The notes: generated by a model from the sequence alone, not told the origin. 64,000 nt of DNA from an uncultured Gemmatimonadaceae bacterium (GCA_963790305.1 CAWBOC010000013.1:160001-224000); one strand, 5' to 3'; positions 2,732 to 47,195 are shown, numbered from the stretch's first letter. Numbers and translations are program-made.

Positions 2732-4648
2732 ATGGCCGCCAACACCGCCCTGATCGAAGACCTTCTTCGACAATACGCTGAAAACCCGCGCCGTGTCTTT
2801 GCCCGACTTGCGAACGAGCTTCGAAAGTCTGGTGACTACGACCGGGCGATCGAGATCTGCCGCGGGCAAATCCCGCAGCAACCTGGCTACATCAGCGGCC
2901 ACATCGTGCTCGGGCAGTCCCTGTACGACTGCGGTCGGCTCGAGGAGGCCCGCCAGACGTTCGAGACCGCACTCAACCTCGATCCAGAGAACCTGATCGC
3001 GCTGCGTCACCTGGGCGACATCGCCCGCCAGCATGGCGCGAACGATGTCGCTCGCGGATGGTACCGCCGGCTGCTCGAGGTTGATCCGCAGAACGACGAA
3101 GTCGTCGCGCAACTGGAGGCGATGGGCGGCCCCGGCGGCGGCACTCCGGCCGTGGGTCAGCCGGTTGTCGCCGAGGAGTTCTCGCCGACGCTCGATATCG
3201 AAGGGTTGAACGTTCCGGCAGTAGAAGCGGCGCCCTCGCCAGAGGCAGGCGCGCCAGTCGGGCCGGAAATCGAGATCGATGAATACCGGCTCGACACCGC
3301 GGGAAAATCGAGCGACGCCGTGGCCGAGCACGAGCCTCTCGAGATCGAGACTGCCGCCGACTTCGAGCCAGCGCGTGGGGCGGAGAAGGCGTTCCCCGAT
3401 CTCGAGCAGAGCCTCGAGGTGAGTGGGATCGGCCCCAGCGACCCGTCGCCCAAGGCTGCCGACGCCGAGGCGATGTTTGGCGACGCGGTCATCGATGAAA
3501 GTCCGGAGAGCGGTGGCGAGCCAAGGGACGCCGTCGACGCGTACTACCCGATGCTGGACGTGCAGTCGACCGGACCGTCTCCGGCCGCGTTCGTCACCGA
3601 GACGATGGCGGAGCTGTATCTCCAGCAAGGGTACGTGCAGGAGGCGCTCGACATTTATCGCCAGCTCGCGGCTCAGAACCCGGCCGACGACACCCTCCGG
3701 GAGCGCGTTAGGCAGCTCGAGCAGGGATCGCGGTCGAGCATCGGCATCGCCGCGATCTCGGACGAAGTGGTGGAGGCCGCGCACAAGCGCGCAACGACCA
3801 GACCGAAAAAGACCATTCGCAGCTTCTTCGCGAAGCTCGCGATGCGACGCGTCGTCGAGCGCGAGGAAGCCGCCGCGGCACCCGACGAGACGACTGGCTT
3901 CGATGATCAGGAGCCGGATGAGCCGAGCGGCGGGCGCCGCCGCAACGAGCCACCGGCCGCTCCGCCCGCCCCGGTGGAGAGGCGGCGTGCCGCGCCAGAG
4001 CTGGAAGAGCCGGCGTGGCTCAGATCCGATCCGGAGCCGGAGTCACCGCCGCAGGGGTCCGGTGAGCCGGGCGGACCATTCGCGCTCCTCGACGAGACCG
4101 AGTGGAGCTCCGCCGTGGCGCCCACTCGTGCCAACGAGCCGACGAACCGTGCTCCCCCATCGCACGAAGACGTACCATGGCTGGCCGGGTACGAGCCTGA
4201 CACGAAACAGCCGCCGCGAGCGGGCGAGGGGTCGCAAGGGCACACCGGTGAGATGATCGCGATTCCACCCTCGGAGCTCTTTCCGACACGGAGCATTCCG
4301 ACCGAGGATGAGAACGCGGCCGCGACGCTGGCGAGCGTGTTCGAGCCGGAATTCGCTGCTCGCCTCACTCCCGTGCGGCCGATGCCGAGCCAGCAGCCGC
4401 CCGAGCAGCGCTCGCGCACGCCCGCCGAAGGCATGCGTCCCAGCGGAGCGACTCGTCAGGCGGAGGAGGAGCTCTCGCTCGACCAGGTGTTCGGGCGAAC
4501 GCCGTCGTCCGGCACACCGCAGGCACGCTCCGGCTTCACCTTCGACCAATTCTTCGACGAGCAAAAGGACGCGAATCGCGAAGGCCCACAGGACGCTTCG
4601 AGCGAGATCGAGCTGTTCAACACGTGGCTCGACCAGCTCAAGAAGTAG
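2732..4648 (+). CDS. Tetratricopeptide-repeat protein with long acidic/Pro-rich linkers
   Basis: N-terminal TPRs (FARLANELRKSGDYDRAIEIC; ALNLDPENLIALRHLGDI) and an internal TETMAELYLQQG TPR. Confidence 0.8.
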   Translation: MAANTALIEDLLRQYAENPRRVFARLANELRKSGDYDRAIEICRGQIPQQPGYISGHIVLGQSLYDCGRLEEARQTFETALNLDPENLIALRHLGDIARQHGANDVARGWYRRLLEVDPQNDEVVAQLEAMGGPGGGTPAVGQPVVAEEFSPTLDIEGLNVPAVEAAPSPEAGAPVGPEIEIDEYRLDTAGKSSDAVAEHEPLEIETAADFEPARGAEKAFPDLEQSLEVSGIGPSDPSPKAADAEAMFGDAVIDESPESGGEPRDAVDAYYPMLDVQSTGPSPAAFVTETMAELYLQQGYVQEALDIYRQLAAQNPADDTLRERVRQLEQGSRSSIGIAAISDEVVEAAHKRATTRPKKTIRSFFAKLAMRRVVEREEAAAAPDETTGFDDQEPDEPSGGRRRNEPPAAPPAPVERRRAAPELEEPAWLRSDPEPESPPQGSGEPGGPFALLDETEWSSAVAPTRANEPTNRAPPSHEDVPWLAGYEPDTKQPPRAGEGSQGHTGEMIAIPPSELFPTRSIPTEDENAAATLASVFEPEFAARLTPVRPMPSQQPPEQRSRTPAEGMRPSGATRQAEEELSLDQVFGRTPSSGTPQARSGFTFDQFFDEQKDANREGPQDASSEIELFNTWLDQLKK

Positions 4649-5091
4649 TGCGCATCGCCGTATTGAACGGGCCGAGCCTCAATCTGCTCGGCTCGCGCGA
4701 ACCGGAGATCTACGGTCGCGCAACGCTCGGCGACATTGAGAAGCGGCTCCGGGCGGTCGCGGGGGAAATCGGCGCCGAGGTTGAATTCGCCCAGCACAAT
4801 GGTGAAGGCGAGCTCATCGATCGAATCCATGCCATGCGCGGGAAGACCGACGGCGCCCTGATCAATGCTGGCGCGTACACGCACACGAGCCTCGCCATCC
4901 GCGACGCGCTCGCCGCGGTCGATGTGCCCTTCGTCGAGGTGCATCTGACGAACATATTTGCCCGCGAGCCGGAGCGACGGCATTCGATGCTGGCCGCTGG
5001 GGCGACCGCGGTACTCTGCGGGTTCGGGGCACTCGGATACGAGCTGGCACTACGCGGCCTCGTGGCGAAGCTGGCTGCGCAGAGTGCCTGA
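4648..5091 (+). CDS. aroQ: Type II 3-dehydroquinate dehydratase
   Basis: LNGPSLNLLGSREPEIYG, INAGAYTHTS, EVHLTNIFARE. The GTG overlaps the TPR stop. Confidence 0.95.
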   Translation: MRIAVLNGPSLNLLGSREPEIYGRATLGDIEKRLRAVAGEIGAEVEFAQHNGEGELIDRIHAMRGKTDGALINAGAYTHTSLAIRDALAAVDVPFVEVHLTNIFAREPERRHSMLAAGATAVLCGFGALGYELALRGLVAKLAAQSA

Positions 5092-10084: not shown

Positions 10085-12426
10085 TTGGGTAGCACGACGT
10101 TGCGGCGCGAGCTCGCCGGCATCGCACTTCTTCTCTTCGCGCTGTTCCTGGGCGCCGCCATCGCCTTTCCCGGCGCGGACGCCACGAGCTGCATGGCCGC
10201 GCGCGGTCCGACGGGACCGGTAGGAGCGTGTTTGCGGTCGGTGTTCGTCGCCACGCTTGGCCTTCCGGCGACCGTTCTGCTCCCGCTGCTGCCCCTGGTG
10301 TACGCCTTACGAGTCTTCCGCCGCATCGAGGCCGACACCGATCGCTCGTGGCTCGTCTTCCTCGGGCGGCCTCGCCTTGTTGCTGCCGGTGGCGATCGCG
10401 CTGGCGATGGGTGCGGCGCGCGAAGTCGAGCCTGCACACGGGCCTGTGGGGCAGCTTCGCCGCGTTCTACCTCCAGCGTGCCTTCGGCTTCGCCGGCGCC
10501 TGGATCATCGTGATGCTCGCTCTTCAGCGTGCTGACGGCCGTGACGCTGGCGTGGAATCCGGTGCGCGTCCTGATCGGCTGGAAGCCGAAGCCAACCGCG
10601 CTGGTGATGGATCACGCGCCGTCGAAGGCGAAGCGGCGGTGGCCGGTGGGGGAAGAGAACGTCGTCGACCGCGAGGCCGCGGCGGTAGCGCTGGCGCCGA
10701 CGCCGGAGGAGATGCCGGGCGTCGATCCATCGCTGCGGGATACTCCCGTCGAGGTGAGTGCGGAACGCGGAATTCGGAAGAAGAAGCGGACCAAGGCCGA
10801 CCTGGCTGCAGAGCACGCCGAGAAGATCGCGGCGGTGATCGACGCGAACGCGTCGGTGCCCGAGGTCGCGGCGGACGAGCTGCCGACGCCCGACATTCTT
10901 TCGCCGCCCCCGCCACGGAATCGGGACTCGTCGCAGCGCGAGCTCGACGCAATGGGCGTGAAGCTCATGGACGCGCTGCGCACCTTCCGTGTCGAAGGGG
11001 AGCTCGTCGGGCGCACGACGGGTCCCGTCGTCACGCAATTCGAGATCGAGCCCGCAGCAGGGGTGAAGGTGCGCCAGATCGCGAATCTCTCGAACGATCT
11101 CGCGCTCGCCATGCGCGCGCAGAGCATCCGCATCGTGGCGCCGATCCCCGGCCGCGGCGCCGTCGGCGTGGAGGTGCCCAACCCGGCGCCGGAGATCGTT
11201 GGCGTTCCGCGAGCTGCTCGAGTCGAAGGACTTTCAGCAGGCGCGCGCTGCGCTGCCGATCGCGTTAGGCAAGGATCTCGAGGGCAAGCCCGTCATCGCC
11301 GATCTGGCGAAGATGCCGCACCTGCTCATCGCCGGGGCAACCGGGTCCGGCAAGTCGGTGTGCGTGAACACGCTCATCACGAGCCTCGTCTACCGGCACA
11401 CGCCGAAGACGCTGCGCTTCCTGATGGTCGATCCGAAGATGGTGGAGCTGTCGGTGTACAATCAGCTCCCGCATCTGCGCCACAAGGTGATCACGGACAA
11501 TCGCGATGCCGCGGCCGTGCTGAAGTGGGCCGTGCTGGAGATGCAGGAGCGCTACGAGCTGCTGGCCGCGAACGGGTGCCGCAACATCCAGGACTTCAAT
11601 CGCAAGGCGCCAGGACGGTCTGCCGCTGTCCATGCCGAAGCGCGCGGACATCGCGTTCGAGGATCTCACGTACCGCGGCGGCGTTCTCCCGTACATCGTC
11701 GTCGTCATCGACGAGCTCGCCGACCTCATGATGACGGTCCAGGGCGAGGTGGAGACGCCGCTGGCGATGCTCGCGCAGAAGGCGCGCGCCATCGGCATCC
11801 ACCTGATTCTCGCGACGCAGCGCCCGAGCGTGAACGTCATCACCGGGCTCATCAAGGCGAACTTCCCCAGCCGGATCGCATTCCGCGTCGCCTCCCAGGT
11901 GGACAGCCGCACGATTCTCGACGGCATCGGCGCGGAGTCGCTGTTAGGCAACGGCGACATGCTCTTCATCCCGCCGGGCAAGTCCGAGCCGTCGCGCCTT
12001 CAGGGCGCGTTCATTCCGAGCGAGGACACCGAGCGGCTCATGCAGTGGTATCGCGACGAGCGCGACGCGAAGCGGAAGGCGTACGAGGCGCAGGGGCTCG
12101 TGCTCGAGGAGCCGGTGGCGGCGGAGCCGGACATTCTCGAGGCCGTGCGCCAGCGTGAGGCGCTCGATCAGGGCGGGGATGAGGGCGAGGATGCGGAGGT
12201 TGGCGACCGGGACAAGCTCTTCCGCGAGGCGGCCGAGGTCGTCCTCCACCACCAGCAGGGATCGACGTCGCTCTTGCAGCGGCGACTGAAGGTCGGCTAC
12301 GGCCGGGCGGCGCGAATCATCGACCAGCTGCACGCAGCGGGCATACTCGGGCCGCCGGACGGCTCCAAGCCGCGCGATGTGCTCGTGGGCCTCGAGGATC
12401 TCGACCGGATTTGTGGACCGAGGTGA
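10085..12426 (+). CDS. ftsK: DNA translocase FtsK (several frameshifts)
   Basis: N-terminal TMs, GPVVTQFE, MPHLLIAGATGSGKSV, DPKMVEL, IDELADLMM, ATQRPSV, and the gamma domain STSLLQRRLKVGYGRAAR. Confidence 0.95.
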
Positions 12427-12457: not shown

Positions 12458-12951
12458 ATGGGGTTATCAGTCCCTTCTCCGTCAGGTCCATCATGACCTG
12501 CATCCCCATCTTCATGCCCCACCGCTCAGCGGCGCCGACCGTCTCGAGCGCCACCGCCGGTTGCTTCTCCGCCATCATGCGGCCAAGGGGAGTCTCGAAG
12601 AACGCGATCATCTGATCGATCTGCTCCTTCGTGTAGTGACGATCGTGCACACCCACCAGGATCGTCACGAACTCCCCGATGTTGTCCGTCGCGCGCTTGA
12701 TGAACTCGTTCCAGAACACGTCCGGGATGTCAGGCTGCGCCTTCTTCTGCGCGTCCAGCCCGACCTTCATTCCCTCGAGCATCGTCCGCTCGGCGCGCGT
12801 CAACGCGATGAGCTTGCGGATCGCTTTCTCCTTCTCGGGATCGACCCGCTTCTCGGCGACCGCTGATCCGGCCTGCGCGTTCGGCGTCTGTGAGATGGCG
12901 GGCGACGCGCTGACAAGCGTTAGGCCGATGAGGATCGGCGATGAGGCGCAT
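12456..12951 (-). CDS. DUF2059-like exported protein (frameshift in the signal peptide)
   Basis: RHYTKEQIDQMIAFFETPLGRMMAEKQP motif, with a signal-like N-terminus. Confidence 0.75.
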
Positions 12952-13119
12952 GGATGAGGGTTACAGGTTAGAACAAACGGGCGCGTGCAGCGACCCCAGA
13001 ATCACAATGCGCGAAGGCCGGCGTCTCGCAAGGGCTCGGTCGTGGCCATGCCGCAGTAGCGACGATTCGCCTTCCCGCTCGCCACGAGGGCGATCGGCAT
13101 GGATGCGTCGTCCACCGCT

Positions 13120-13950
13120 CCCATAGCATGCGCGACCGCGTGAGGAGCGCCTACGCTTGAAAACTCGGCGAGTCGAAACCCGCCGGCTTCCAGCTCGGCC
13201 GCGAGCTCGTCCTCGGAGAAATGGTGCGCGAAGTCGGGGACCAGATCGTCGCCAAGCTCCGCCTTTTGCGGCCCCGAATCGCGCGAAGGACATTAGCAGT
13301 CCTCGTGACGATGCGCAGATACCGAATCGCTTGCTGGCGCGCGAAGACAGAAACCAGGACCGGTGCGCCGTTAGGCAGGTGCGGCCGCAACTGCTTCAGG
13401 AACCGGATGCGAGTCGACGCGTGCTGCATCAGCGTATAACTGCGACCACCCAATGATCGCCCCGTCGCATGTTGGAATATCGGAGTGGGCATTCGTCCCG
13501 CGGGGCGAGGGCGACGCGCGCGCGATCCTTCACGACCCAGAATGCTCGTTGGCACTTTGAAGCGAGATCGGGGTGGCACTCGAACGCACGGACCACGGCG
13601 AGGCCGCGTCGCTCCAGCGCAACGACTGTCACGACCGCCCCCAGCCGACGAGACCAGAACCGAGCGACAACCCAGGAAGTGCCGCTCGAAGGATCCGCGC
13701 CTCCCAGCGGAAGAATCCCGAGAAGATTGTAGTGCTCGTCGTGGTACATGCGCGTGCGTCGGTAGTACAGTCTCGTTGGTCGCATACAGCGAGGTCCGGT
13801 CGAGGAGGCCGAGCCATGTGCCGATGAAGACGCCCCGCGCTGCCGTGATCGAGCCTTCGAACCACCGACGTCGAGGCGTCGTAGGCCCGGACTGTCCACG
13901 GCAGATGCGACCGTCGTCCATGCCGAGGAATGAGGAGCCATTCCCAAATG
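13120..13950 (-). CDS. Class I SAM-dependent methyltransferase-like (frameshifted; ends approximate)
   Basis: SAM motif VLVSSAGGGR, then RIRFLKQLRPHLPNGAPVLVSVF and HHFSEDELAAELEAGGF in adjacent frames. Confidence 0.55.
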
Positions 13951-16331: not shown

Positions 16332-19128
16332 ATGCAGGCTTCCGAGATCCGCGCGCGCTTTCTCTCGTACTTCCAGGCGCACCAGCACTCCGTCCGGCCG
16401 AGCTCGCCACTCGTTCCCGCGGATGACCCGACGTTGCTCTTCACCAACGCCGGCATGGTGCAATTCAAGAAGATCTTCCTCGGCCAGGAGCAGACCGAGT
16501 ACGGTCGTCGCGCCACGACGGTCCAGAAGTGTGTGCGCGCGGGCGGCAAGCATAACGATCTGGAGCAGGTCGGACACACCTTCCGGCATCACACCTTCTT
16601 CGAGATGCTTGGCAACTTCTCGTTTGGCGACTACTTCAAGGCCGAGGCGATCCGCTTCGCCTGGGAGTTCGTCACCGAGGAGCTTTCGCTCGACCCGCGG
16701 CACCTGCGGGTGACCGTGTATCACTCCGACGACGAGGCGCGGGACCTCTGGCGCGATGTGGCGCAGCTGCCGCCCTCGCGCATCTACGGCCTGGGCGAGA
16801 AGGACAACTTCTGGCAGATGGGGGAGACCGGCCCGTGTGGGCCGTGCTCGGAGATCTACGTCGATCTCGCCCACGTCGCGAATGACTGGGTGTTCCCGGC
16901 CGGTGCGACCGGTGAATGGACGGAGCGCGACCGCGCCGACTTCTCGCTCGAGGCCTTCGTCGTCGGTGCGGAAGCGGGTCGCTTTCTCGAGATCTGGAAC
17001 CTCGTGTTCATGCAGTTCGATCGGTCCGCGGACGGAACGCTGACGCCCCTTCCGAAGCCATCGATCGATACCGGGGCCGGCCTCGAGCGCATTGCCGCGG
17101 TCATGCAGGGGACAACCAGCAACTTTCACACGGACCTCTTCACCCCGATTCTTCACACCATTGAGGAGGTCGTGGGCGTTCCCTACTGGGGACGGGAGAG
17201 CGACGAGGCGCGTCGCGGTATTGCCGCGCATTTGCCCGGCGGCGTGCGCCGGATCATTCCGAACGCGGTCGAGCCGGCGTCCTTTCGAGTCATCGCCGAT
17301 CACGCGCGCGCGGTCGCGTTCCTGCTCGGCGATGGCGTCTTCCCATCGAACGAAGGACGGGGCTACGTCCTGCGCCGAATCCTCCGTCGGGCCGTTAGGC
17401 ACGCCTGGCTGCTCGGCCGGCAGGAGCCGACGCTCGCGCCGGTCGTTCAAGCCGTGATCGAGAGCATGGGGGGCATCTATCCCGAGCTCCTCCATCGGGC
17501 GAAGCACATCGTGGACACCACGACGGCGGAGGAGGAGCGCTTTCTCGCCACGATCGATGCCGGAATGGCGCGGTTCGACGAGCTTGCACCGCCCGCCACG
17601 ACGCAGGGATCTACCGCGGTACGGGGGACGATCTCGGGTGAGGAGGCGTTCATCCTGTACGACCGCTACGGCTTCCCGATCGACCTCACGGAGCTCATGG
17701 CGCGCGAGCGGGGCTACACCGTCGACATCGCGGGCTTCGAGGCCGCGCTCGAGACACAGCGTCAGCAGTCGCAGGCCGATCGGAAGGCGAAGAAAATCGG
17801 CGTGGCGGCCGACCAGCTGACGGAGGGCGCGTGGGAGGCGGAGTCTGCGCCCGCGACGCCTGTTGGACCCGCGCGACATCAGCGAAACGGCGTTCGTGGG
17901 GTACGAGACCGTCGAGATCGAGACGCAGGTGACCGCGGTTCGCCGCCTCGGTGACGACCGGCTCGCGGTGATGCTGCGCGAAACGCCGTTCTACGCCGAG
18001 TCTGGCGGCCAGATCGCCGACGTCGGAGAGATCATCGGCGAAGGGTGGCGGGTCGACGTCGACGACGTGCGCCGCGTCGACGGCCGGGTGGCGGCGTTAG
18101 GCAAGCTCACCGGGTCGTTCAAGTTCGGCCGCGTCATCGCGCGCGTGCCGAGCGATCGCCGCCGGGATACCGAGCGCAATCACACCGCGACCCATCTGCT
18201 GCACGGTGCGCTGCGGGAGGTCCTCGGCGAGCACGTGCATCAGGCGGGCTCACTCGTCGCGCCGGACCGGCTTCGCTTCGACTTCACGCACCACGGGCCC
18301 GTCAAGCCCGAAGCGCTGACGGAGATCGAAGAGCGCGTCAATCGCGCCATCTGGGCCGACGTCGACGTGCAGTTCACGCAGAAGTCCTATCGTGAGGCGG
18401 TCGAAGCGGGCGCCATGGCGCTGTTCGGCGAGAAGTACGGCGACGTCGTGCGCGTCGTCTCCATTCCGGGATACTCCGTGGAGCTGTGCGGCGGAACGCA
18501 CGCGCGCAACACCGGACAGATCGCGCTCTTCAAGATCGTGGCGGAAACCGGCGTGGCGGCCGGCGTGCGCCGGATCGAGGCGGTCACGGGCCCGCGCGCC
18601 TACGAGCTCATTCGCGAGGAAGAGCGGCGACTTCAAAAGATCGTCGACCTCGTGAAGGGAACGTCCGACGGCGTCGTGAAGCGGGTCGAGGCGCTGGTGG
18701 AAGAGCGGCGTCAGCTTCAACGCCGGCTCGATGACAGCCTGCGTGGTGGGGGCGATCAGGTGGCAACGCTCGTCGCCGGTGCACGACAGGTGAATGGCGC
18801 GCGCGTGGTTGCCGCCGAGGTGCGTGTCGGCGACGCGAAGGAGCTACAGGCGCTGGCGGATGCGCTTCGCGAGAAGCTCGGGACGGGCGTGGGGGTGTTG
18901 GGCGCGTCGATCGGGGACAAGACGACCATGCTCGTCGTCGTCACCGACGATCTCCGTGAGAAAGGGGTACGTGCCGATGCCCTCGTGCGCGACATTGCGG
19001 CGATCGCGGGCGGGCGTGGGGGTGGCAAGCCGCACCTGGCGCAGGCTGGCATTCCCGACGCCACGAAGCTTCCTCAGGCGATCGAGCACGCCCCGGGGAT
19101 CATCGCGCGTGCGCTCGCGACCGCCTGA
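16332..19128 (+). CDS. alaS: Alanine--tRNA ligase (frameshift near 17860)
   Basis: DPTLLFTNAGMVQFK, HHTFFEMLGNFSFGDYFK, NHTATHLLH, ELCGGTH, GGRGGGKP. Confidence 0.97.
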
Positions 19129-19472
19129 CGACGTGCGCCAGCCGTCACCGGGGACAGTCGGTGCCTGGCTGGAGGGTCGCACGCCTCCGCCTCCCCAGAT
19201 GCTGCGATCGCGAATCCTGCTGGCGTTAGGCGATGGACTCGGCCGCGCCGTGGCGGACACCGAGGAGGTGTGCCTCGATGCCGCGGAGCGCGTGCTGTCC
19301 CATCTGTTCTCGGACGGCACGGGAGGCCGACACGAGGCAGTCGACTTGCTGGCAGCCGACGCGCTGGTGACGTACGCCCTCGAGTTCGCCGCCGAGACGC
19401 CGCCGAGAGTTCGAGGTCAGCGCGACGCTCGCGCTCGAGCGCTTTGGACAGCTTGCACGGGGATGCGCATGA
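19129..19472 (+). CDS. Small hypothetical protein (ends approximate)
   Basis: Coding-like segment WLEGRTPPPP...DLLAADALVTYALEFAAE. An apparent frameshift joins it to the next gene, with an ATGA overlap at 19469-19472. Confidence 0.45.
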
Positions 19473-20949: not shown

Positions 20950-21509
20950 TGGCCAAGACCTCTGATGCGCTCCGAGAGCTGGCTGCTTTGGCCGGGCGCG
21001 TCGCCGACACGGTGGCGGCCGACCTGGATCGCGCGCTCGATCTCGTGCGCGAGACCGTGCGCGGCGGAGGGACGCTCTTCTTCTGCGGAAACGGCGGTAG
21101 TGCGGCCGACGCGCAGCATCTGGCGACCGAGTACGTGGTGCGGTACATGAAGACGCGGCGAGCGTACCCCGCCGTGGCGCTGACGACGGACACATCCCTC
21201 CTCACCGCGGCGGGGAATGATCTGGGCTTCGAGGAGATCTTCGCGCGCCAGGTCGAGGCGCTCGCGAAGCCTGGCGATCTGCTGATCATCCATTCGACGA
21301 GCGGAAGCTCGCCTAACGTGCTCCGTGCGGCTGAAGCAGCTCGTGCCAAGCGCGTGAAGGTCCTGTCGTTTGCCGCACGCGATGGTGGCGAGCTCAAGGC
21401 ACTGTCCGATCACATCGTCGTCGTACCTACGGATCGTACTGACCGGGCGCAGGAGATCCATCTCTGCATGGAGCACGCGATCTGCGAGGCGATCGAGCGT
21501 GATCTGTAG
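20949..21509 (+). CDS. gmhA: Phosphoheptose isomerase (SIS domain)
   Basis: CGNGGSAADAQH, GNDLGFEEIFARQ, STSGSSPNV, QEIH. Confidence 0.9.
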   Translation: MAKTSDALRELAALAGRVADTVAADLDRALDLVRETVRGGGTLFFCGNGGSAADAQHLATEYVVRYMKTRRAYPAVALTTDTSLLTAAGNDLGFEEIFARQVEALAKPGDLLIIHSTSGSSPNVLRAAEAARAKRVKVLSFAARDGGELKALSDHIVVVPTDRTDRAQEIHLCMEHAICEAIERDL

Positions 21510-23102: not shown

Positions 23103-24071
23103 GTGATCCCAATCCTCTTCACCGGTGGTACGATCTCGATGCGCCAGGATCCCGCAATCGGCGGTGCGATCCCGACGCTGTCGGGACGCGATATCCTTGC
23201 CGCGACACGCGGCATCGAGGAGGTCGCTGACTTCGAGGTAGAGGAATGGGGGGCGTATCCAGGTCCGCACATGACCGTCGAGCGGATGTGGGCGCTTCGA
23301 AACAGGATCGCCGAGCATATCGAGCGTCCGGAAGTGGACGGTGTCGTCGTCACGCATGGCACGGACACGCTCGAGGAATCCGCGTACCTCAACGCCCGCA
23401 CGATTGCCGCGCACAAGCCGATCGTATTCACCGGCGCGATGCGGACCGCGAGCGAGCTCGGCTGGGACGGACCGTCGAATCTGATCGACGCGGTTCGTGT
23501 GGCCGCGAGCGAGGAGTCGCGCGGCTACGGCGTGATGGTGACGCTCTCGGGGCGGGTATTCGCCGGCCTCGACGTGACCAAGGCGCACACGCATTTGCTC
23601 GATGCCTTCGAGAGCCCGGGGCTCGGCCCGATCGGCGTCATCGACGATGGCAATGTGATCTTTCGTCGTGCGCTCCCCCCTTCGCCCCCGCTTCTCGCGC
23701 CGCCGTCGCCCGCGCTGCCGATCGATATCGTCGCCGCGTACCCGGGCGCGGACGCTCGGCTCCTCGATGCTGCTCGGGTTGACGCGTTAGGCGTCGTCAT
23801 CTCCGCGATGGGACGGGGGAACGTGCCGCCCGCGATGGTGTCTGGGATCGAGCGATGGATTCGGGCCGGGAAGCCGATTGTCGTCGCGTCACGAGCGCTT
23901 CGAGGGCGCGTCGGACGTACATACGGGTATCCGGGGGCCGGACGCCGATTGCACGACCTCGGCGCTGTGTTCGCTGGCTCGCGCCGTCCGCAACAGGCGC
24001 GAATCGAGCTCAGTCTTGCGTTGGGTGCCGGGCTGACGGGGGGGGAGTTGAGGCAGCTCTTCGAGGAGTGA
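23103..24071 (+). CDS. Asparaginase
   Basis: FTGGTISM, VVTHGTDTLEESAY, TGAMR, GRGNVPP. Confidence 0.92.
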   Translation: MIPILFTGGTISMRQDPAIGGAIPTLSGRDILAATRGIEEVADFEVEEWGAYPGPHMTVERMWALRNRIAEHIERPEVDGVVVTHGTDTLEESAYLNARTIAAHKPIVFTGAMRTASELGWDGPSNLIDAVRVAASEESRGYGVMVTLSGRVFAGLDVTKAHTHLLDAFESPGLGPIGVIDDGNVIFRRALPPSPPLLAPPSPALPIDIVAAYPGADARLLDAARVDALGVVISAMGRGNVPPAMVSGIERWIRAGKPIVVASRALRGRVGRTYGYPGAGRRLHDLGAVFAGSRRPQQARIELSLALGAGLTGGELRQLFEE

Positions 24072-28535: not shown

Positions 28536-29013
28536 ATGCGTAAGCTCGCGTTGGTCGGACTGGCCGCGGCGACGGCGTTTGGCACGTACGGATGTGCGAG
28601 CGTCGCTCGCAACGCGTTCGCCGAGCCGGTGGTCACGCTCCGCGATGTGAAGCTCCAGGGCATCGGACTCACCGGTGGGTCGTTCGACGTCGTGCTCAGC
28701 GTCTACAATCCGAACGGGTATCGCCTGGATGCGACGCAGCTGAATTACAATCTGTTCGTGGACACGCTGCGATTCGCGAATGGCACGCTGGCGCAGCAGT
28801 TCACGGTGCAGGAGAAGGATTCCACGCTCGTGCGCGTGCCGGTGAATTTCAGCTACGCCGGCGTCGGCGAGGCCGGTCGACAGCTGCTGAACACGGGGTC
28901 GGTGAACTATCGCGTGGCGGGCGACGTGACGGTGGCGACGCCGGTCGGGCAGCTTCAAGGTTCCGTACGACCGGACCGGCCGGTTCTCGACGTTAGGCGG
29001 GTCGAGTCGGTAG
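28536..29013 (+). CDS. LEA_2/WHy-domain lipoprotein (frameshift near 28950)
   Basis: Signal peptide with YGC, and LSVYNPNGYRL. The alternative frame ends FKVPYDRTGRFSTLGGSSR at TAG 29011-29013. Confidence 0.8.
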
Positions 29014-29054: not shown

Positions 29055-29065
29055 AGGGAACTGGC

Positions 29066-33983: not shown

Positions 33984-35737
33984 CCGAGCGCCGCGCTGAC
34001 CCGGCTCGGTCGCCGTACGAGCCCGAGGCGAATCCTCTCGCGGACGTGCGCGATCGCCCCGCCGAGGCGCCTGCGACGGCCGCGAAATCCTCCCGACGGT
34101 CTTCGCCTCGCGCGCTCTTGTGGTGGTGTCGCGGGATCGCTCTCGGGCTGGGCCTTCTTCAGGCGTGGGCGTTCCGCTACGAGGCGACTCCCGATGGCGT
34201 TTCGTATCTTGACGTGGCCGATGCCTATCGCGAGGGCCGATGGGGCGATGCGCCTAACGGATACTGGAGCCCGCTCTACTCGTGGCTGTTGGCGATCGCG
34301 GGAGCCGTACTCCGCCTGCCCCCGTCCGCTGACTTCGTGCTCGCGCACGTCGTGAATCTGGGCGCGTACGCGGCGAGCATGTGTGCGTTCGAATACTTCC
34401 TCCAGGGCGTTGCGCCGTTTTCCGTCGATCGACGGGGAGACAACGACCGCCAGCGCGACTGGTGGATCTTGGGCTACGCCCTGTTTCTGTGGGCCACCCT
34501 TGCGTTGATCGGCGTCGGGGTGACCACCCCTGACTTGCTGCTGGCGGGGGCGGCGTTCGCTGTCGCCGGGCTGTTAATGAGGGTTTGCCTCCCTGGCCGG
34601 CATTCGGTTCGGGGGGCCCTGTTGGGACTGACGGCAGCTGCAGGGTGTCTCGCCAAGGCGGCGTTTCTACCGATTTCGGTTGTCGTCTTCCTGGTGGCGG
34701 GAGTCCTCTGGTGGCGAACGAAGCGAACGATTCTGCCACTCGTAGTGGCGTTGGCTAGCTTCGCCGTCCTGTCGCTGCCGTATGCGGCGGCCCTCTCGCG
34801 GGCGAAAGGAAGACTCACGTTTTCCGAGTCAGGGCCGCTCGCGTACGCGTGGATAGTCAACGGAATTCCCGGGCAGGTTCACTGGCAGGGCGGGCCACCG
34901 GGCGCCGGACGTCCCACGCACCCCACGCGCAGGATCTCCGCCGCGCCGGCCGCATACGAATTCGGGACACCGCTTCGTGCGACGTATCCTCCGTGGTATG
35001 ACCCCACCTACTGGTATGATGGAGTCCGCCCGCGCTGGGACCCTGGCACCCAGGCGCGCATTGCGTATCACTACCTGCCGTTTCTTGGGGAGCTGTTCAC
35101 TCCGTTGATACTTGTTGTCGTGGCAACGCTGGTCGGCGCTCGGCGAGGGCCCGGAACGCTGTTGAGTGTCCTGGGACGCGGCTGGTCGATCACTCTGCCG
35201 GGCCTAACGGCTATAGCGATGTACGCGACGCTGTTCCTCGAAGCCCGATACATCGCCCCGTTTGTCGTAATGGTCTGGCTCGGAGTGCTGATCGGCCTAG
35301 ACGCGGTCATGCCCAGCGCGTGGCGACGAGGTCTGTTTGCCGCTGCCGCGGGCATTCTCGTGTTGGGGACTCTTCCCAATCTCACCCCGAAGCTGCGCGC
35401 ACTGCTTCCGACTTACGACAACCGTCATTGGGATGACGCCACTTTTGTGCTCGCGGGCGGCCTGCGTCCCGGTGACCGCATTGCCATCGTCGGGAACGGC
35501 GTCTTTGCTTATTGGGCGAGACTCGCGCGGCTCAAGATCGTTGCCGAGGTTCCCTCGGACGCGAGCGACCATTTTTGGAGAACCGACAGCGGGTCGCGTT
35601 CCGCGCTACTAACGGAGTTTCGGCGGGCGGGAGCTTCAGCGGTCGTGGCGGACAATGCTCCGTCTCCTGCGCTGCCGGGATGGCGTATCGGCCGGGATGG
35701 GCGCCTCGCCGTTCTACAATTGACCGGCGACGAGTGA
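33980..35737 (+). CDS. Polytopic membrane protein, possibly a GT-C-type transferase
   Basis: About 10 hydrophobic segments, an early loop PDGVSYLD..NGYWSPLYSW, and TPDLL. Confidence 0.6.
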   Translation: MTERRADPARSPYEPEANPLADVRDRPAEAPATAAKSSRRSSPRALLWWCRGIALGLGLLQAWAFRYEATPDGVSYLDVADAYREGRWGDAPNGYWSPLYSWLLAIAGAVLRLPPSADFVLAHVVNLGAYAASMCAFEYFLQGVAPFSVDRRGDNDRQRDWWILGYALFLWATLALIGVGVTTPDLLLAGAAFAVAGLLMRVCLPGRHSVRGALLGLTAAAGCLAKAAFLPISVVVFLVAGVLWWRTKRTILPLVVALASFAVLSLPYAAALSRAKGRLTFSESGPLAYAWIVNGIPGQVHWQGGPPGAGRPTHPTRRISAAPAAYEFGTPLRATYPPWYDPTYWYDGVRPRWDPGTQARIAYHYLPFLGELFTPLILVVVATLVGARRGPGTLLSVLGRGWSITLPGLTAIAMYATLFLEARYIAPFVVMVWLGVLIGLDAVMPSAWRRGLFAAAAGILVLGTLPNLTPKLRALLPTYDNRHWDDATFVLAGGLRPGDRIAIVGNGVFAYWARLARLKIVAEVPSDASDHFWRTDSGSRSALLTEFRRAGASAVVADNAPSPALPGWRIGRDGRLAVLQLTGDE

Positions 35738-35744: not shown

Positions 35745-37552
35745 TCACGGCACCGACGCGAACTGCAACCGCTCCTCCCACTCCGCGCGCAGCATCGTCA
35801 GAGCCCCATCGGGACATCCGTCGACACAGATCCCACATCGATTGCAGAGCTCCGACTCGACGACCGGTCGCCCCTCGACAAGCGTGATGGCGCCCGTTGG
35901 GCAGCTCTCGGCGCAGCCTTGGCACCCGGTGCATTGACCGGTGATCGCGGGAATCCGCGCGCAATCGAAGCAGCGGGCGGCCTCTTCTCCCGCGCGCGTC
36001 GCCGCTCGCGGCGTGACCGGACCAAACGGGTCTGAGGGGGGGGCGTCCAGCAACGGGAGTGCCCGTCGGCGGTCTGCGGCACCGCGATCAGGCGCAGGTC
36101 GCCCGTTTGCTTCCACCCACGCCGACGCGAAGACGATTGAAGTACGGGTGCCCGTGAGCGACGCGTGAATCTCCCCCGCCGCGCGCTTTCCGTCGGCCAC
36201 CGCGTGCGCGATGGACCGATGGCCGAAGGCACACGCGCCGCCGGCCCACACGTTAGGCATCGATGTTCGCAGCGTGTGCGGGTCAGTCGCAATGAAGCCG
36301 GAGCGCGTGAGGTCGAGCTCTCTCGCGAAGGGCGCGGCGTCGGGAACGCGCGACGACGCCAGCACGAGGCGGTCGCACGGAAGGACGCGCGCCGAGGTGC
36401 CGTCAGGCGCAGCGATGTCGACCGACGTCAGGAGTCCGGACTCGGGATCGACGTGGACTCGGCGGATGCGCCACTCGTGGTGGACGCGGATGCCTTCGCG
36501 GGCGCACGACGCGAGAAGCTCCGGCGTGACCGCTGGGGTGGTCGAGAGGGGAGGTGAGAACGAGCTGCTACGGACGACAGGGTCCGCGGATCGGTGGCGG
36601 CGGCGCGCCTGACGAGCGCCCGCGCCGCATCGACCGCGAGGGGTCCGTCACCCGCGACGATCGTCTGCCCGACCGGTGCGATGTCATTGCGCAGGACGTC
36701 CATGGCGTCGAAGATGTCCGGGTGATGCTGCGTGGACTCGAGCAGTGGCGTCCGCCGCCCGTGCAGCGCCGATCGCGAGGAAGACCGCGTCGCTCCGTCG
36801 TCGAGGAGTGCGCGCAAGCCAGCCACGGCTGCACCCCCTCGAAACTCGACTCCGAGTGCGAGGATAGCGGCGCACTCCGCTGCGGGCGCTCGCGACTGGG
36901 AATCGAAACGAGGGGATCCCGCCGCGTCATCAGGCCCCCCGGCTCGCCGCGCGCGTCGAGACACGATCGCGCGGTGTCCCAGGAGCGGCGAGATCGTGCG
37001 CGCAGGCGAGCCCGGCGGCGCCGGCGCCGACGATCGCGATCATCTTGCCCGACCGCGCTCGCCGCGACGGCGGCTTGCGGTCGACCGTCCGACGGCTCCA
37101 GCGACGGAACGCGCCTCGAACCGCGAGGTGCAGGGCCCGTCGGGCGCGACGAGGTCGGGCATGGCGAACGCCGCGGCGTGCTCCTCGAGCGCGGCGATCG
37201 CCACCGGCGCGCCAAAGGGCCGCCGTCGGCACGCCGACTCACAGGGCGCGAAGCAGCCGTTGCCGCACGTCGATGGGAGAGGGATGCGCCGCCCGAACGA
37301 CGCGGAACGCTGGCTCGTGGTCGCCTCCCGCGAGCGCGCGCGCCAGGGCGGGAATATCGACGCCCAAGCGGGCAGCCCTGCGCGGCATGCCGGCACGGGA
37401 CGAGCGCACCGCACGCGGCCGCGACGGAGCTGGCGGGTACCCGGTGCGCGTCCGACTCGGATGCGTCGCCGCCACATCCGCCGCGCTTGCCGGGCCGGTA
37501 CGGTGGGGCTGTAGGCCGCGGTCAGGTCGGAGGTCGCGCGCTCGGTGCTCAT
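35745..37552 (-). CDS. FAD-dependent oxidoreductase with 4Fe-4S clusters, GltD-like (heavily frameshifted)
   Basis: PSTCGNGCFAPCESACRR, IAIVGAGAAGLACAHDL, RTSMPNVWAGG, EAARCFDC and two CxxCxxCxxxCP motifs. Confidence 0.75.
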
Positions 37553-38388: not shown

Positions 38389-39743
38389 ATGAGCATTTAC
38401 GGTGCGCTGCAGGAGAAGATCGCGCGACGCGAGGTCGTCTGCGGCGTGGTGGGAATGGGGTACGTGGGGTTGCCGCTCGCCGTGGAGATGGCGAAGAGCG
38501 GGTTGCGCGTGATCGGCTTCGAGAAGTCGCAGCACGTCGTCGATGTCGTGCGTGGCGGGCGAGAGCCACATCAAGGACGTGGCGGCCGCCGACGTCGCCG
38601 AGCTGCGTCGCCGGAAGCTGCTCGACGTGACGCTCGACATGGAGCGCCTCGCGGAGTGCGACGTCGTCTCGATCTGCGTGCCGACGCCGCTTGGGCAAGA
38701 CGAAGGATCCCGACATGTCGTACATCGTGTCGGCGACGGAGGCGGTGGCGGCGGCGCTGCGCCCGGGGCAGCTGATCGTCCTCGAGTCGACGACCTATCC
38801 AGGGACGACGCGCGAGATCATGCTGCCGCGCCTCGAGGAGAGCGGGCTGCATGTCGGTGAGGATTTCTTCCTCTGTTTCTCGCCCGAGCGCGTGGATCCA
38901 GGCAACGAGCGCTGGCACACGAAGAACACGCCGAAGGTCCTCGGCGGCATCACCGAGCAGTGCACCGAGCTCGGGATCGCGCGTCTACGAGATCTTCATC
39001 GAGCGCATGGTGCGCGTCTCGTCGCCGGAGGCGGCGGAGCTCACGAAGCTGCTCGAGAACACGTTCCGCATGATCAACATCGGGCTGGCGAACGAGATGG
39101 CGCAGATCTGCGACAAGCTGGGCGTGAACGTGTGGGAAGTGATCGATGCCGCGGCCACGAAGCCGTTCGGCTTCATGAAGTTCACGCCCGGTCCCGGGCT
39201 CGGCGGCCACTGCATCCCGCTCGATCCGCACTACCTCGCGTGGAAGATGCGCACGCTCGCCTACAAGACGCGGATGATCGAGCTCGCGGGGGAGATCAAC
39301 ACCGAGATGCCGGCGTTCTGGGTGACGAAGGTGCAGGATGCGCTGAACACGGTCGGCAAGCCGCTGCACGGGTCGCGCGTGCTCGTGCTCGGCGTCGCTT
39401 ACAAGAAGGACATCGACGATCTGCGCGAGTCCCCGGCGCTCGAGATCCTCGACCAGCTCAACCGGAAGGGCGCGGTCGTCTCGTACCACGATCCGTATCT
39501 GCCCGGAGATTCGGGAGGACGGCCATACGCCGTTAGGCGCGATCGGGCGATCGGTCGAGCTGACCGATGAGCGAGTGCGCGAGGCGGACGTCGTTTTGAT
39601 CGTCACCGATCACTCGAATGTGGACTACGAGCGAGTGTGCGGACATGGCGCGCATCGTCGTCGATACGCGTAACGCGTGCGCGAGCGCGCGCGCGAAGGC
39701 GAAGCGCGCTCGCTTCAGCACGTCGGAGCCGGTGACCGTCTGA
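38389..39743 (+). CDS. Nucleotide-sugar 6-dehydrogenase, WbpA/WecC-like (frameshifted)
   Basis: GMGYVGLPLA, ICVPTP, LESTTYPGTT, KLLENTFR, GLGGHCIP, GVAYKKDIDDLRESP. Confidence 0.9.
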
Positions 39744-44155: not shown

Positions 44156-44156
44156 G

Positions 44157-46081
44157 ATGTGCGGGATACTCGGCCTCATTGATTTGCGTGGCGACGGAGC
44201 GCTCTCGCATACGGAGCGGGCAGCGACTCTCCTTACCCATCGCGGGCCGGATACGTCGGCGAATTGGGTCACACGCGTGGGGCCGGCAGCGGTCGCGCTC
44301 GGCCACCGCCGGTTGAGCATCATCGATCTGTCGGCCGCCGGCGCGCAGCCAATGTTGCAGCGCGACAATGGATCGCTGTGCCCGGTTCGTACGACCACCG
44401 ACTCCGCGCGACTCGCGATGGTCTTCAACGGCGAGATCTATAACTACGTGGAGCTCCGCGACCAGCTGCGAAACGCAGGCCATCATTTCACGTCGGAGGG
44501 CGACACCGAGGTTCTGCTCGCGGCGTACGCCCAGTGGGGTGAGGACTGCGTCCAGCGCCTGAACGGGATGTTCGCGTTGGCGATCTGGGATCGCGAGGCG
44601 AGGCGACTCTTCTGCGCGCGCGACCGGTTCGGAGAAAAGCCTTTCTACTATGTGCTCGGGGAGGACGGTCAGCGGTTCGCGTTTGCATCCGAAGTCAAGG
44701 CGCTGGTTGGGCTCGGGATGGTGTCCCCGGACATCGACGCTCGAGCCCTCTACCGGTTCTTCCGGTTTGGGGAGCAGGCGGGCGTTGAGAACACGGTGTG
44801 GAAAGGCGTACGGAGGCTTCTCCCTGCAACCTCGCTGACCGTTCAGCTATCAGAGGCGAGGCTTACTGCTCGCTTGCGTCGGTACTGGGATGTGCAGATC
44901 GCGGACGATCGATCCGTGACGGCGGCACAGGCCGCGGCGCGGTTCGCTGAGCTCTTTCGCGACAGCGTCCGGATCCGCCTGCGGGCGGATGTTCCAATCG
45001 GAACGAGCCTGTCCGGCGGCCTCGACTCGTCGAGTGTCCTCTGTCAGATCAATGCGTTAGGCGCGGCCGCTGGGCAAAAGGCGTTCACTGCGCGCATGGA
45101 TGACCCGTCGCTCGACGAGAGTAGGTACGCCGCCCTCGTGCTCGCGCGAACGGGCGTCCCAGGCTACTCCGTCGTCCCAACGGCCGGTGAGTTTCTCATC
45201 GAGCTCGACCAGTTGGCGTATCACCAGGAGGAGCCGTTCACGTCCACGAGCGTGTTCGCTTCCTATCTCGTCCAGCGACTGGCGAAGCGCCATGGGGTGA
45301 CGGTCATGCTCGACGGCCAGGGCGCAGACGAGTATCTCGCCGGCTACGCACACTACCCGGCGCTCTTGCTCTCGTCGCTGGCCCGCGCAGGGCGTTGGCG
45401 AGCGTGGCGCAAAGAACGCCTGGCGACTCGGAGCGTGATCGGCGTGGATCCGGTGCCACCCCGGGCGGCTGTTCGCTACTGGCTGTCATCCATTGTGTCG
45501 CGGAATGGCGCGACATTTCTCTCGCAATCGATGCCGAACGCGATACGTCGTTCCTCGCCAGCGATCTGCGCGAACTGTTCGGCGGTGAGGAGCCGCGTAT
45601 GTTGCGGTTGGAAGGCGACGCGGTGAAGAGGCGGTTGTATGCCGACCTCATGCACGGTCACCTGCAGGAGCTCCTGCGGTACGCGGATCGCAACTCGATG
45701 GCGTTCTCGAGAGAGGTCCGGTTGCCGTTTCTCGATCATCGCCTGGTCGAGCTGTCGCTTTCGCTGCCCTCGGAAATGCTCTTCCACGATGGCCGCAGCA
45801 AGCGCGTGCTTCGCGATGCGATGCGTGGGGTAGTGCCGACAGAGATCCTCGAGCGCCGCGACAAGGTGGGGTTCATGTCTCCATGGGCCCAGTGGTGGAA
45901 GGAGGAGCGGGTTGCGGCCACGTTTCGGGAACGCCTCGAAGACGCACGCGAAATCCTGGGAGGGTACGTGAATGTCGATGCCGTTCCTCCTGCGTCGCCG
46001 GAAGCGTTGGGGGTCCTGACACTCGCTGCTTCATTGCGCCGACTACGCGCCCTCGAGCCCGAGCCGGTCGTCCTGGCGTGA
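44157..46081 (+). CDS. asnB: Asparagine synthase (glutamine-hydrolysing)-like amidotransferase (frameshift near 45525)
   Basis: MCGI, HRGPD, HRRLSIID, FNGEIYNY, LSGGLDSS, DGQGADE, EVRLPFLD. Confidence 0.92.
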
Positions 46082-46100
46082 AGGCACCGGTTGGAGGCGC

Positions 46101-47195
46101 GTGCGGGTCCTGACAGTGGTTGGCGCTCGCCCGCAGTTCATCAAGGCGGCCATCGTCTCCCGGGCCCTTCGTGACGCTGGTGTCGACGAGCTGCTCGTCC
46201 ATACGGGGCAGCACTACGACGACCGTCTCAGCGAGATTTTCTTTCGCGAGCTCGAGCTCGCACGGCCCTTGTTTCACCTTGGTATCGGTTCGGGGAGTCA
46301 CGGTGCGCAAACCGGCCGAATGATCGCCGAGATCGAGAAAGTCGTCGAGCGCGAGCGCCCCGATCGAGTCCTCGTGTTCGGGGATACGAACTCCACTCTC
46401 GCCGGCGCTCTCGCGGCTGCGAAGCTTCATGTGGCCGTGGATCATGTCGAGGCCGGCCTTCGGTCGTACGACAGAGACATGCCGGAGGAGGTGAATCGGG
46501 TCGTCGCGGATCACCTGTGCGATCTCTTGTTCTGTCCGACGCCGAATGCTGTACGACAACTGGCGCGCGAAGGCATCACTGAGGGCGTTTCGTTCGTCGG
46601 TGACGTAATGCTCGACCTCGCCGTTGAAGCGCGAGGTCCAGCGATGGGGCGGGCGCTGCCGGCGGGGCTGCGACCGGGCGCGTATTTTGTCGCGACGATT
46701 CATCGGCCCGCGAATACGGACGATCCCGGGCGCCTGCGCTCGATTGTCGCGACCCTCGAGTCGGTCGGGCGTGACATTGCGCCGGTCGTCCTGCCGGTCC
46801 ACCCACGGCTTGCGGCGTCGTTAGGCTCAGAGCGGCCGGCGATTGATGGTGTCATCTGTATCGAGCCGGTTGGGTATCTCGACATGCAAGGGCTCGTACT
46901 CCGTGCGCGTGGAGTTCTCACCGATTCGGGTGGACTGCAGAAGGAGGCGCTGTTCCACGGCGTCCCGTGCATCACGCTGCGTGATACCACCGAGTGGCCC
47001 GAAAGCGTGGATGCGGGATTCAACGTGCTGGCGGGGAACGGCCTTACCACGGTTGGGCCGCTTGCCGAACGATGCGCCGGGAGACGCCCCGTGCCGCCCG
47101 GCGTGCTCGAGGGATTCGGTGGAGGTGAGGCGGGGCCGCGCATCGCTGCCGCTGTCCGGGGCGCAGCATCGAGCCGACGCCGAAGGCGCCAATGA
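46101..47195 (+). CDS. wecB: Non-hydrolysing UDP-GlcNAc(NAcA) 2-epimerase, WecB/WbpI-like
   Basis: VVGARPQFIK, HTGQHYD, GDTNSTLAGAL, HVEAGLRS, TDSGGLQKEA. Confidence 0.9.
   Translation: MRVLTVVGARPQFIKAAIVSRALRDAGVDELLVHTGQHYDDRLSEIFFRELELARPLFHLGIGSGSHGAQTGRMIAEIEKVVERERPDRVLVFGDTNSTLAGALAAAKLHVAVDHVEAGLRSYDRDMPEEVNRVVADHLCDLLFCPTPNAVRQLAREGITEGVSFVGDVMLDLAVEARGPAMGRALPAGLRPGAYFVATIHRPANTDDPGRLRSIVATLESVGRDIAPVVLPVHPRLAASLGSERPAIDGVICIEPVGYLDMQGLVLRARGVLTDSGGLQKEALFHGVPCITLRDTTEWPESVDAGFNVLAGNGLTTVGPLAERCAGRRPVPPGVLEGFGGGEAGPRIAAAVRGAASSRRRRRQ

Follow-up and report, generated by a model that had tools for sequence, protein, structure and literature searches.

Genome-wide self words have been described in a few groups of bacteria. 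The DNA uptake sequences (DUS) of the Neisseriaceae and the uptake signal sequences (USS) of the Pasteurellaceae are short, non-palindromic and lineage-specific, occur about once per kilobase to few kilobases, equally on both strands, and come in variant dialects. They lie between genes and inside genes in every permissive frame, and are kept at orthologous sites. To our knowledge, hyper-abundant self words are well known from only three bacterial groups, namely those with DUS, USS and HIP1. HIP1 (GCGATCGC) of cyanobacteria is described (PMC5861425) as an octamer over-represented 15- to 300-fold and conserved within and between genes; its function was long a puzzle, and it is now reported to enhance transformation (PMC13756078). 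Here we describe a further octamer, CGTTAGGC, in a stretch of 64,000 nucleotides from an uncultured Gemmatimonadaceae bacterium. This stretch (the window) is G000:C13:160001-224000, and the assembly G000 comprises 4.31 Mb in 13 contigs. We tentatively read CGTTAGGC as an uptake-sequence-like or HIP1-like self word that may be kept by biased gene conversion or selection.

The window contains 16 copies of CGTTAGGC, 13 forward and 3 reverse, and every coordinate and strand given by the initial annotation matches. Its claim of over-representation also stands: dinucleotide shuffles of the window hold 1.15 copies on average and 4 at most, and none of 100 reached 16. The word is non-palindromic, as had been noted, since its reverse complement GCCTAACG differs from it. 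The purine said to stand next to it in 13 of the 16 copies is seen in their contexts, and in 68% of copies genome-wide. G000 holds 855 copies in total (419 forward, 436 reverse). About 44 are expected from an order-3 Markov model, which makes CGTTAGGC the top over-represented 8-mer of the genome (about 19-fold, z about 122). Over all G000 copies, the 15 bases on each side are at background composition, so the word stands as an 8-mer in its own right rather than as the centre of some longer repeat. The inner single-mismatch form CGTTATGC occurs 253 times genome-wide against 35 expected. The end-mismatch forms TGTTAGGC and CGTTAGGT are enriched in G000 too, and most other single-mismatch forms are not. 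The best explanation for these three is that they are weaker accepted forms of a self word that is hyper-abundant in some Gemmatimonadales lineages. An apparent depletion of single-mismatch neighbours was not used: the copies of TTAG and TAGG contained in the word itself raise the order-3 null.

The enrichment persists under a codon-aware null. Our own, crude gene caller gave 3,026 genes covering 75% of G000, and these hold 611 copies, compared with 38.3 +/- 5.8 in 30 within-gene shuffles of synonymous codons (16-fold). All four stop-free frames are enriched, by 6.5- to 36-fold: NCG-TTA-GGC occurs 294 times versus 8.2 in the shuffles, GTT-AGG 54 versus 3.7, CTA-ACG 129 versus 5.9, and CCT-AAC 134 versus 20.5. 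The word accounts for 294 of the 1,010 TTA codons in called genes; 294 of 2,834 [SPTA]-L-G tripeptides and 133 of 590 x-P-N-[VADEG] sites are written with it. Its density is 0.19 per kb within called genes and 0.23 per kb outside, where the latter includes uncalled genes because the caller is crude. Enrichment across frames and beyond the synonymous-codon null indicates that the force acts on DNA. The initial annotation had proposed a lineage-specific signal of this kind, acting on DNA and not on protein, and the conservation of individual sites bears it out as well.

Two CGTTAGGC sites in alaS are identical in all five aligned congeneric species, at 83-86% DNA identity, and the adjoining synonymous positions vary. 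Over the window as a whole, 8 of 12 words are identical in G005 (24% of all aligned 8-mers, P 0.002), 9 of 12 in G003 (19%, P 3.5e-5) and 3 of 6 in G004 (29%, P 0.24). Pooled, 20 of 30 word comparisons are identical, against 19-29% for any 8-mer; these are related species, and the tests are not independent. Conservation at synonymous sites, which had been put forward as a check, is thus present. The dense genome G016 carries alaS words at places other than those used in the window's genus. Words have been written independently at different sites in different genera.

The strand skew claimed from the window is local only, as the genome-wide counts are nearly even. In 50-kb bins with |GC skew| of at least 0.008 (2.9 Mb), the G-rich and C-rich strands hold 298 and 268 copies (53% G-rich); the most skewed 8-mers of G000 reach 60-71% on one strand. 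On contig C5 the strand counts are even on either side of the GC-skew switch. Because GC skew is weak in G000, these polarity tests are of modest power. Successive copies share a strand in 412 cases and differ in strand in 430. A lopsidedness of 13:3 is reached in 1 of 114 half-overlapping 64-kb windows, the studied one (binomial p 0.021, about 2.4 expected). Forward genes predominate in the window, which may add to its local skew.

The gaps between copies in G000 are approximately exponential, with a coefficient of variation (CV) of 1.0. Counts per 20-kb bin are Poisson-like (variance/mean 1.04) without a link to GC content, and no clustering, macrodomain pattern or large-scale regularity was seen in this genome. 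Short gaps are rare: 11 are below 300 bp where 50 are expected, and in the dense genome G016 the CV of the gaps is 0.81. In five dense genomes, pairs 40-70 bp apart reach 0.23-0.95 of the expected number whichever of the three orientation classes is considered, and the arrangement that would resemble an attC site (a reverse copy and then a forward one) reaches 0.23-0.44. Close and inverted pairs are depleted, and the words are therefore solitary, without hairpin pairing. We accordingly rejected an attC-like or terminator-like pairing of words, since such pairs are depleted and not enriched.

We surveyed 401 Gemmatimonadales genomes of at least 80% completeness, among which relatives are not independent samples. 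A genome was taken as word-rich if it held at least 150 copies and at least twice as many as of a backwards-read control word, and the tally was made by hand. About 42 of the 401 genomes are word-rich, and they belong to 20 of 106 genera; the window's family contributes 33 of its 191 genomes, and the two other families 4 of 21 and 5 of 189. The richest genome has 7,821 copies in 6.1 Mb, or one per 780 bp. All nine genomes of the window's genus are enriched. The trait can be on in some species of a genus and off in others: copies number 3,244-4,141 in five species of g38 and 66 and 8 in two more, and they range from 8 to 835 in g18 and from 11 to 561 in g61. Among 31 relatives, the genomes enriched in the form CGTTATGC are precisely those rich in CGTTAGGC, and it occurs at 0.11-0.91 of the number of CGTTAGGC. 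The unpublished genomes G015, G090, G209, G260 and G358 were counted in the survey; all are word-poor and add only to denominators, and none of the conclusions depends on them.

The sequence of CGTTAGGC coincides with the crossover core of integron cassettes. The R' box of an attC site has the consensus GTTRRRY with crossover after the G; IntI1 binds double-stranded R boxes in attI, and cassettes can insert at genomic attG sites, all according to PMC12901181. Integrons occur in Gemmatimonadota, as stated in PMC8618304. CGTTAGGC is a C followed by GTTAGGC, a perfect fit to the R' core, and the identity of the word with the attC core used in the arrays of G021 and G019 escaped the initial annotation. 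In word-poor relatives most copies form one-strand runs about 550 bp apart. The region G021:C95:1-24000 is a cassette array in which 26 of 26 copies close an attC made up of the inverse core GCCTAAC, paired L boxes and C-GTTAGGC. In the arrays of G021 and G019, 28 of 34 hairpin-defined attC-like sites end in CGTTAGGC, the commonest R' in the cassette arrays of this order; the hairpin-based finder is noisy and calls sites on both strands, and its counts are rough. Large chromosomal cassette arrays were seen at G021:C95:1-24000 (at least 26 cassettes), G019:C3, G029:C1 and G162:C2:836837-856836 (about 30 attC-like sites in 20 kb). G000 encodes an intact integrase at C9:694984-695919 (355 aa), and its array follows downstream, oriented like intI. 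The regions C9:694984-726000 and C8:12800-15900 contain about 17-21 attC-like hairpins, with the R' forms CGTTCTGC (9) and CGTTATGC (7-8), and CGTTATGC is an R' form in the G029 array as well. A chance match to the R' core is unlikely, given that it extends to the 5' C and the T-form, and the match may reflect a shared or co-evolved reader.

The dispersed copies share the perfect R' core with attC and attI sites but differ from attC and attG sites in their setting, which is inside conserved genes. The inverse core GCCTAAC lies 40-160 bp upstream of 1 of the 855 G000 copies, and none of the window's 16 is attC-like. Given also the background flanks, without L boxes, and the depletion of inverted pairs, the dispersed copies are not attC sites. 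The window is on contig C13, and intI and the array of G000 are on C9. IntI exceeds the cut-off in 22 of 31 relatives, whether these are rich or poor in the word; none was found in the word-rich G012 and G005, and G016 has fragments only. We rejected the integrase as the on/off switch, as it occurs in relatives of both kinds and in five of five dense genomes. Words as recombination joints were rejected as well: of the 50 indel or synteny boundaries seen on comparing the window with three congeners, 4 lie within 60 bp of a word, about the number expected by chance. Other R' forms are not enriched genome-wide in G000 (CGTTCTGC 1.07-fold, CGTTAGAC 0.18-fold). The R' forms of G000 hinted that word-rich genomes avoid CGTTAGGC in their own attC sites; this is contradicted by G162, which uses CGTTAGGC, and by G124.

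The gene families searched for a reader do not follow the trait. ComEC and DprA are present in five of five genomes, word-rich and word-poor alike, and secretins in 30 of 31 relatives, with a copy number that is not linked to the trait. An extra secretin in word-rich genomes (3-4 versus 2 in the first sample) was not upheld in 31 genomes. A small ComEA-like HHH_3 protein is encoded in G008, G016 and G021, and also in word-poor genomes. The window's genus has ComEC, DprA, secretins and the ComEA-like protein. Two of the secretin matches, at G000:C3:186336-186845 and C11:42842-43351, have the same score and the same open-frame length (662 aa), and may represent a duplicated region or redundant contigs.

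RecC (PF04257) was found in none of five genomes, and an AddAB-type PDDEXK_1 domain has no match in G000 or any of the nine congeneric genomes. In g38 both word-poor species carry this domain and two word-rich ones are without it; among the 31 relatives it is present in 1 of 12 word-rich versus 8 of 19 word-poor genomes. The anticorrelation fails over the 401 genomes, with 6 of 42 word-rich genomes versus 83 of 359 others (Fisher p 0.24), and the densest genome, G356, has one. The correlation with AddAB or RecBCD that had been suggested is thus not borne out. AddAB-type helicase-nuclease genes are patchy in the Gemmatimonadales: 89 of 401 genomes, G260 being one of them, have a PDDEXK_1 match at E <= 1e-10. 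The methylase families PF01555, PF00145 and PF02384 have no match in G000 and occur within the genus only in G003. The Dam-like PF02086 is present in 8 of the 9 congeneric genomes and also in the word-poor G009, G011, G015 and G017; the word-rich G012, G016 and G030 gave no match to it. None of the four families correlates with the trait in the 31 relatives, and they were rejected as its trackers.

Like the DUS of Neisseriaceae and the USS of Pasteurellaceae, CGTTAGGC is short, non-palindromic, of similar density, equal on both strands, independent of frame, kept at orthologous sites, accompanied by variant forms and lineage-specific. It differs from them in that it is found in another phylum and known from sequence alone, has no inverted terminator pairs, is depleted in close pairs, switches within genera, and is identical to an attC core. 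With HIP1 it shares the character of a hyper-abundant conserved octamer. HIP1 is a palindrome read by two methylases, whereas CGTTAGGC is asymmetric, has no methylase tracking it in the four families searched, and shows no large-scale regularity in G000. The word is solitary, neutral in strand and frame, written at synonymous sites, conserved and rarely doubled; because this is the anatomy of DUS, USS and HIP1, we rank a drive by biased uptake or recombination first. CGTTAGGC would enter genes through point substitutions at synonymous positions, and the copies would then be kept. A protein that handles double-stranded DNA in uptake or recombination would prefer fragments with the word, and alleles with it would replace alleles without it by biased gene conversion, or 'molecular drive'. 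At a density of roughly one copy every 0.8-5 kb the drive would come to a halt. An additional copy only a few hundred bases away would add nothing, and close pairs would stay rare.

Several observations weigh against such a drive. Word density hardly differs between genes whose codon usage is typical and those where it is atypical (0.17-0.20 per kb, and 0.15 in the tenth with the lowest GC content at third codon positions, GC3), which is no more than a weak sign of the depletion in acquired DNA that an uptake sequence would show; in the same connection, the integron array region of G000 holds 3 words in 30 kb versus about 6 expected, and the 39-kb word-free tail described below is a polysaccharide gene cluster. 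The on/off pattern within genera, as in g38, is sharper than anything known to us for DUS or USS. A plain uptake tag gives no reason for the identity with the integron core. Canonical ComEA (TIGR00426) is above the cut-off in none of five genomes, and the competence genes that were found are equally present in word-poor genomes and so explain nothing of the on/off pattern. No receptor was found among the gene families searched, and the preference in uptake is argued by analogy. Among the options listed by the initial annotation, an uptake-sequence-like word nonetheless fits best, and the Chi-like and KOPS-like ones (KOPS, FtsK-orienting polar sequences) are unsupported.

It is conceivable, if doubtful, that the reader of CGTTAGGC is the integron integrase or a closely related enzyme, and that the dispersed copies are lone R boxes, attG-like or decoy, spread by selection or recombination linked to IntI binding. 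The fit to GTTRRRY speaks for this, as do the array copies of G021, all of which close an attC, the predominance of CGTTAGGC at the attC-like sites of G021 and G019, the use of CGTTATGC as R' in the arrays of G000 itself and G029, and the double-stranded binding by IntI1 and the insertion at attG described in PMC12901181. The dispersed copies, however, lack the upstream inverse core, are depleted in inverted pairs and lie at indel or synteny boundaries no more often than by chance; the R' forms CGTTCTGC and CGTTAGAC are not carried along genome-wide, IntI is found in genomes of both kinds and was not found in the word-rich G012 and G005, and word-rich genomes do not avoid the word in their own attC sites. 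We consider it somewhat less probable still that CGTTAGGC is the site of a chromosome-organising or housekeeping DNA-binding protein under ordinary selection. We know of no candidate protein for such a role. The conserved orthologous sites, the even genomic spread and the exclusion of close neighbours, together with the gap CV of G016, would suit a site of this kind, and the same proposal was made for HIP1 by Xu et al. (PMC5861425), which provides a precedent. Against it, a core function should not switch on and off among species of one genus, and G000 shows neither clustering nor a macrodomain pattern nor large-scale regularity.

A by-product of sequence-specific repair or modification, either very-short-patch-like or methylation-linked, that converts near-cognate sites is improbable. 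Spread by point substitutions and the uneven spectrum of single-mismatch neighbours would agree with it, as would the Dam-like gene in most congeneric genomes and the reported tie of HIP1 to methylases. The other three methylase families have, however, no match in G000 and within the genus are found only in G003, and PF02086 is found in word-poor genomes and not in several word-rich ones. Conservation of individual sites argues for maintenance over constant re-creation, and the enrichment of 19- to more than 100-fold is far beyond the level known to us for very-short-patch repair in Escherichia coli. A Chi-like hotspot or a KOPS-like FtsK guide is more improbable again, and KOPS is largely refuted already. 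Like Chi (RecBCD/AddAB) and KOPS (FtsK), CGTTAGGC is an octamer over-represented across the chromosome, in G000 at about one per 5 kb, a density like that of E. coli Chi; the window encodes an FtsK with a gamma domain, and its 13:3 ratio falls on a stretch of positive GC skew. Unlike them, CGTTAGGC has no replication-linked orientation genome-wide or over the C5 skew switch. RecC was found in none of the five genomes searched and the AddAB-type nuclease in none of the genus, the latter without order-wide tracking, and one word per 0.8 kb with more than 100-fold enrichment exceeds the levels known to us for Chi.

We regard an assembly or basecalling artefact as barely credible, although G000 does carry indel errors. 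By the GC3 frame plot and Pfam domains, ftsK (10529-12426) occupies three frames, shifting near 11190-11205 and 11600-11700, and alaS (16332-19128) occupies two, shifting near 17860-17950. Contigs from other metagenomes lack one base near 11191-11203 and at 11609. These breaks in two essential genes are most likely assembly indel errors and not pseudogenes. In public reads, 15 runs hold 5-7% of the sampled words, and contigs of 4 of these runs on the window are mostly from relatives, at 90-95% likeness. The word itself is enriched in nine of nine congeneric assemblies of 13-330 contigs each, besides the word-rich genomes of the order at large. The alaS word encodes conserved residues and differs by at least 3 bases from the codons of the word-poor G010 and G011. 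None of its single-mismatch neighbours is so common, or so depleted, that the word could derive from it, and G000 is without matches to three major methylase families. The artefact that the initial annotation had allowed for is thereby set aside. A small share of the probability is kept for explanations yet to be conceived.

The 16 copies of the window are distributed as follows. Four are read in the sense direction as GTT-AGG. The copy at 3706..3713 (+) lies in a gene for a TPR-repeat protein (2732-4648, +), encodes V-R, and has an identical counterpart at the orthologous position of both G005 and G003. That at 17393..17400 (+) encodes V-R of the alaS peptide RRAVRH, and is one of the two sites shared by all five aligned congeneric species; the word-poor genera of G010 and G011 have GTG-CGC for this peptide. 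The copy at 28991..28998 (+), in a LEA_2-domain gene (28536-29069, +), is identical in G003 and CGTTAGGT in G005, and that at 39531..39538 (+), in a UDP-glucose/GDP-mannose dehydrogenase gene (38851-39570, +), is identical in G003 and not in G005. The frame GCG-TTA-GGC, also in sense, is used at 11263..11270 (+) in the motor domain of ftsK, where it encodes A-L-G of PIALGKD and is identical in G005, G003 and G004. Both of these peptides, in FtsK and AlaS, had been named by the initial annotation. The same frame is used at 18095..18102 (+) in the second frame piece of alaS (17863-19128), again identical in five of five aligned congeneric species; at 23785..23792 (+) in an asparaginase gene (23103-24071, +), identical in G005 and G003; and at 45055..45062 (+) in an asparagine synthase gene (43986-45626, +), identical in G003 and not in G005. 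At 46819..46826 (+), a UDP-GlcNAc 2-epimerase gene (46101-47195, +) has TCG-TTA-GGC in sense, and G003 has CGTTGGGC.

The reversed copies are antisense to forward genes. The one at 21311..21318 (-) reads CCT-AAC (P-N) in a SIS-domain gene (20949-21509, +) and is not kept in G005, G003 or G004. An open reading frame (ORF) of 605 aa without a Pfam family (33920-35737, +) contains the other two, at 34252..34259 (-) as CCT-AAC and at 35202..35209 (-) as CTA-ACG (L-T); in G005 and G003 the syntenic DNA lacks a counterpart of this ORF. Outside the gene calls, the copy at 12918..12925 (+) stands 27-35 bp before a species-variable segment (12953-14047) and is identical in G005 and CGTCAGGC in G004. 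That at 13369..13376 (+) is within the same segment, where there is no called gene, and cannot be aligned to G005, G003 or G004. The copy at 19224..19231 (+) lies directly past alaS without a confident gene call, is identical in G005, and is CGTTAGGT in G003, G004 and G008. The copy at 36251..36258 (+) is also outside gene calls and is identical in G005 and G003. A gene for a PilT/PilB-type T2SSE ATPase (6663-7865, +) was seen a few kilobases 5' of ftsK, recA, recX and alaS.

The second enriched form, CGTTATGC, occurs six times in the window, at 1467 (+), 16550 (-), 40905 (-), 43110 (-), 50339 (-) and 53642 (-). Of six near variants named by the initial annotation, five are within one mismatch, namely TGTTAGGC at 11942 (+), CGTTAGGT at 26367 (+) and 31009 (-), AGTTAGGC at 38341 (+) and GGTTAGGC at 41587 (+), with genome-wide ratios of 3.0-6.7; the sixth, at 37580, is beyond one mismatch. 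The tail of the window, 46827..64000, is free of the word, and so is the DNA that follows up to the contig end at C13:245792. This makes 39 kb at a GC content of 0.631, the second-longest CGTTAGGC gap of G000. It holds a polysaccharide-biosynthesis cluster with genes for glycosyltransferases, sugar epimerases/dehydratases and nucleotidyl transferases, and the homology of the window's tail to G005 and G003 is weaker and ends at about 50-55 kb. An open frame of 1,019 aa in this tail (59553-62612, +) has a mannose-1-phosphate guanylyltransferase/isomerase as its C-terminal part. Its N-terminus, in the same frame, has a weak TIR_2 match (29.0 bits, cut-off 28), and the ORF may be over-extended.

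Other words are over-represented in G000 as well. AATGCGGA has 628 copies (6.4-fold) and ACTCCTGA has 333 (5-fold). A word of the GGCGCTAGAGGC type, GCTAGAGG, has 198 copies (15-fold) despite containing CTAG. The genome also carries a family of near-perfect palindromic hairpins of 60-130 nt, with repeats of the CACAGAGG or CGCAGAGG type, at places including C3:105759, C5:87749, C10:385631, C5:7755 and C9:992467; some are bounded by GCATAAC...GTTATGC. They may be repetitive extragenic palindromic (REP)-like elements or like miniature inverted-repeat transposable elements (MITEs).

Literature searches of open-access papers and bioRxiv found no description of CGTTAGGC, in line with the initial annotation, which knew of none; among the papers listed, exact matches to the word were of primer type. 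The same searches found no paper on a gemmatimonad 'DNA uptake sequence', and turned up work on HIP1 and on DUES that does not deal with CGTTAGGC. CGTTAGGC would be a fourth hyper-abundant self word, in a poorly studied soil phylum, and its enrichment is extreme, reaching one per 780 bp by way of the rarest codons. In word-rich lineages it is a strong practical marker of native versus foreign DNA, and for binning. The origin and the readers of self words are long-standing questions, and since the trait is on or off between species of one genus (g38), the reader should be findable by plain comparative genomics. We know of no DUS, USS or HIP1 for which an integron core and a self tag have been described as shared. 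Two ways in which one word could serve both systems come to mind, each rather unlikely in our estimate: in roughly one in ten Gemmatimonadales species, a reader that handles DNA may have become tuned to the cassette crossover core (C-GTTAGGC, C-GTTATGC), or the chromosome may have turned into a field of R boxes read by IntI. With a tuned reader, cells would preferentially import or recombine cassette-bearing DNA, and the thousands of stamps in core genes would be a side effect. In either case, the recombination signal of a mobile element and a genome-wide self tag would be one sequence. The identity with the cassette core, if causal, would thus tie genome-wide sequence drive to the main gene-capture system of bacteria.

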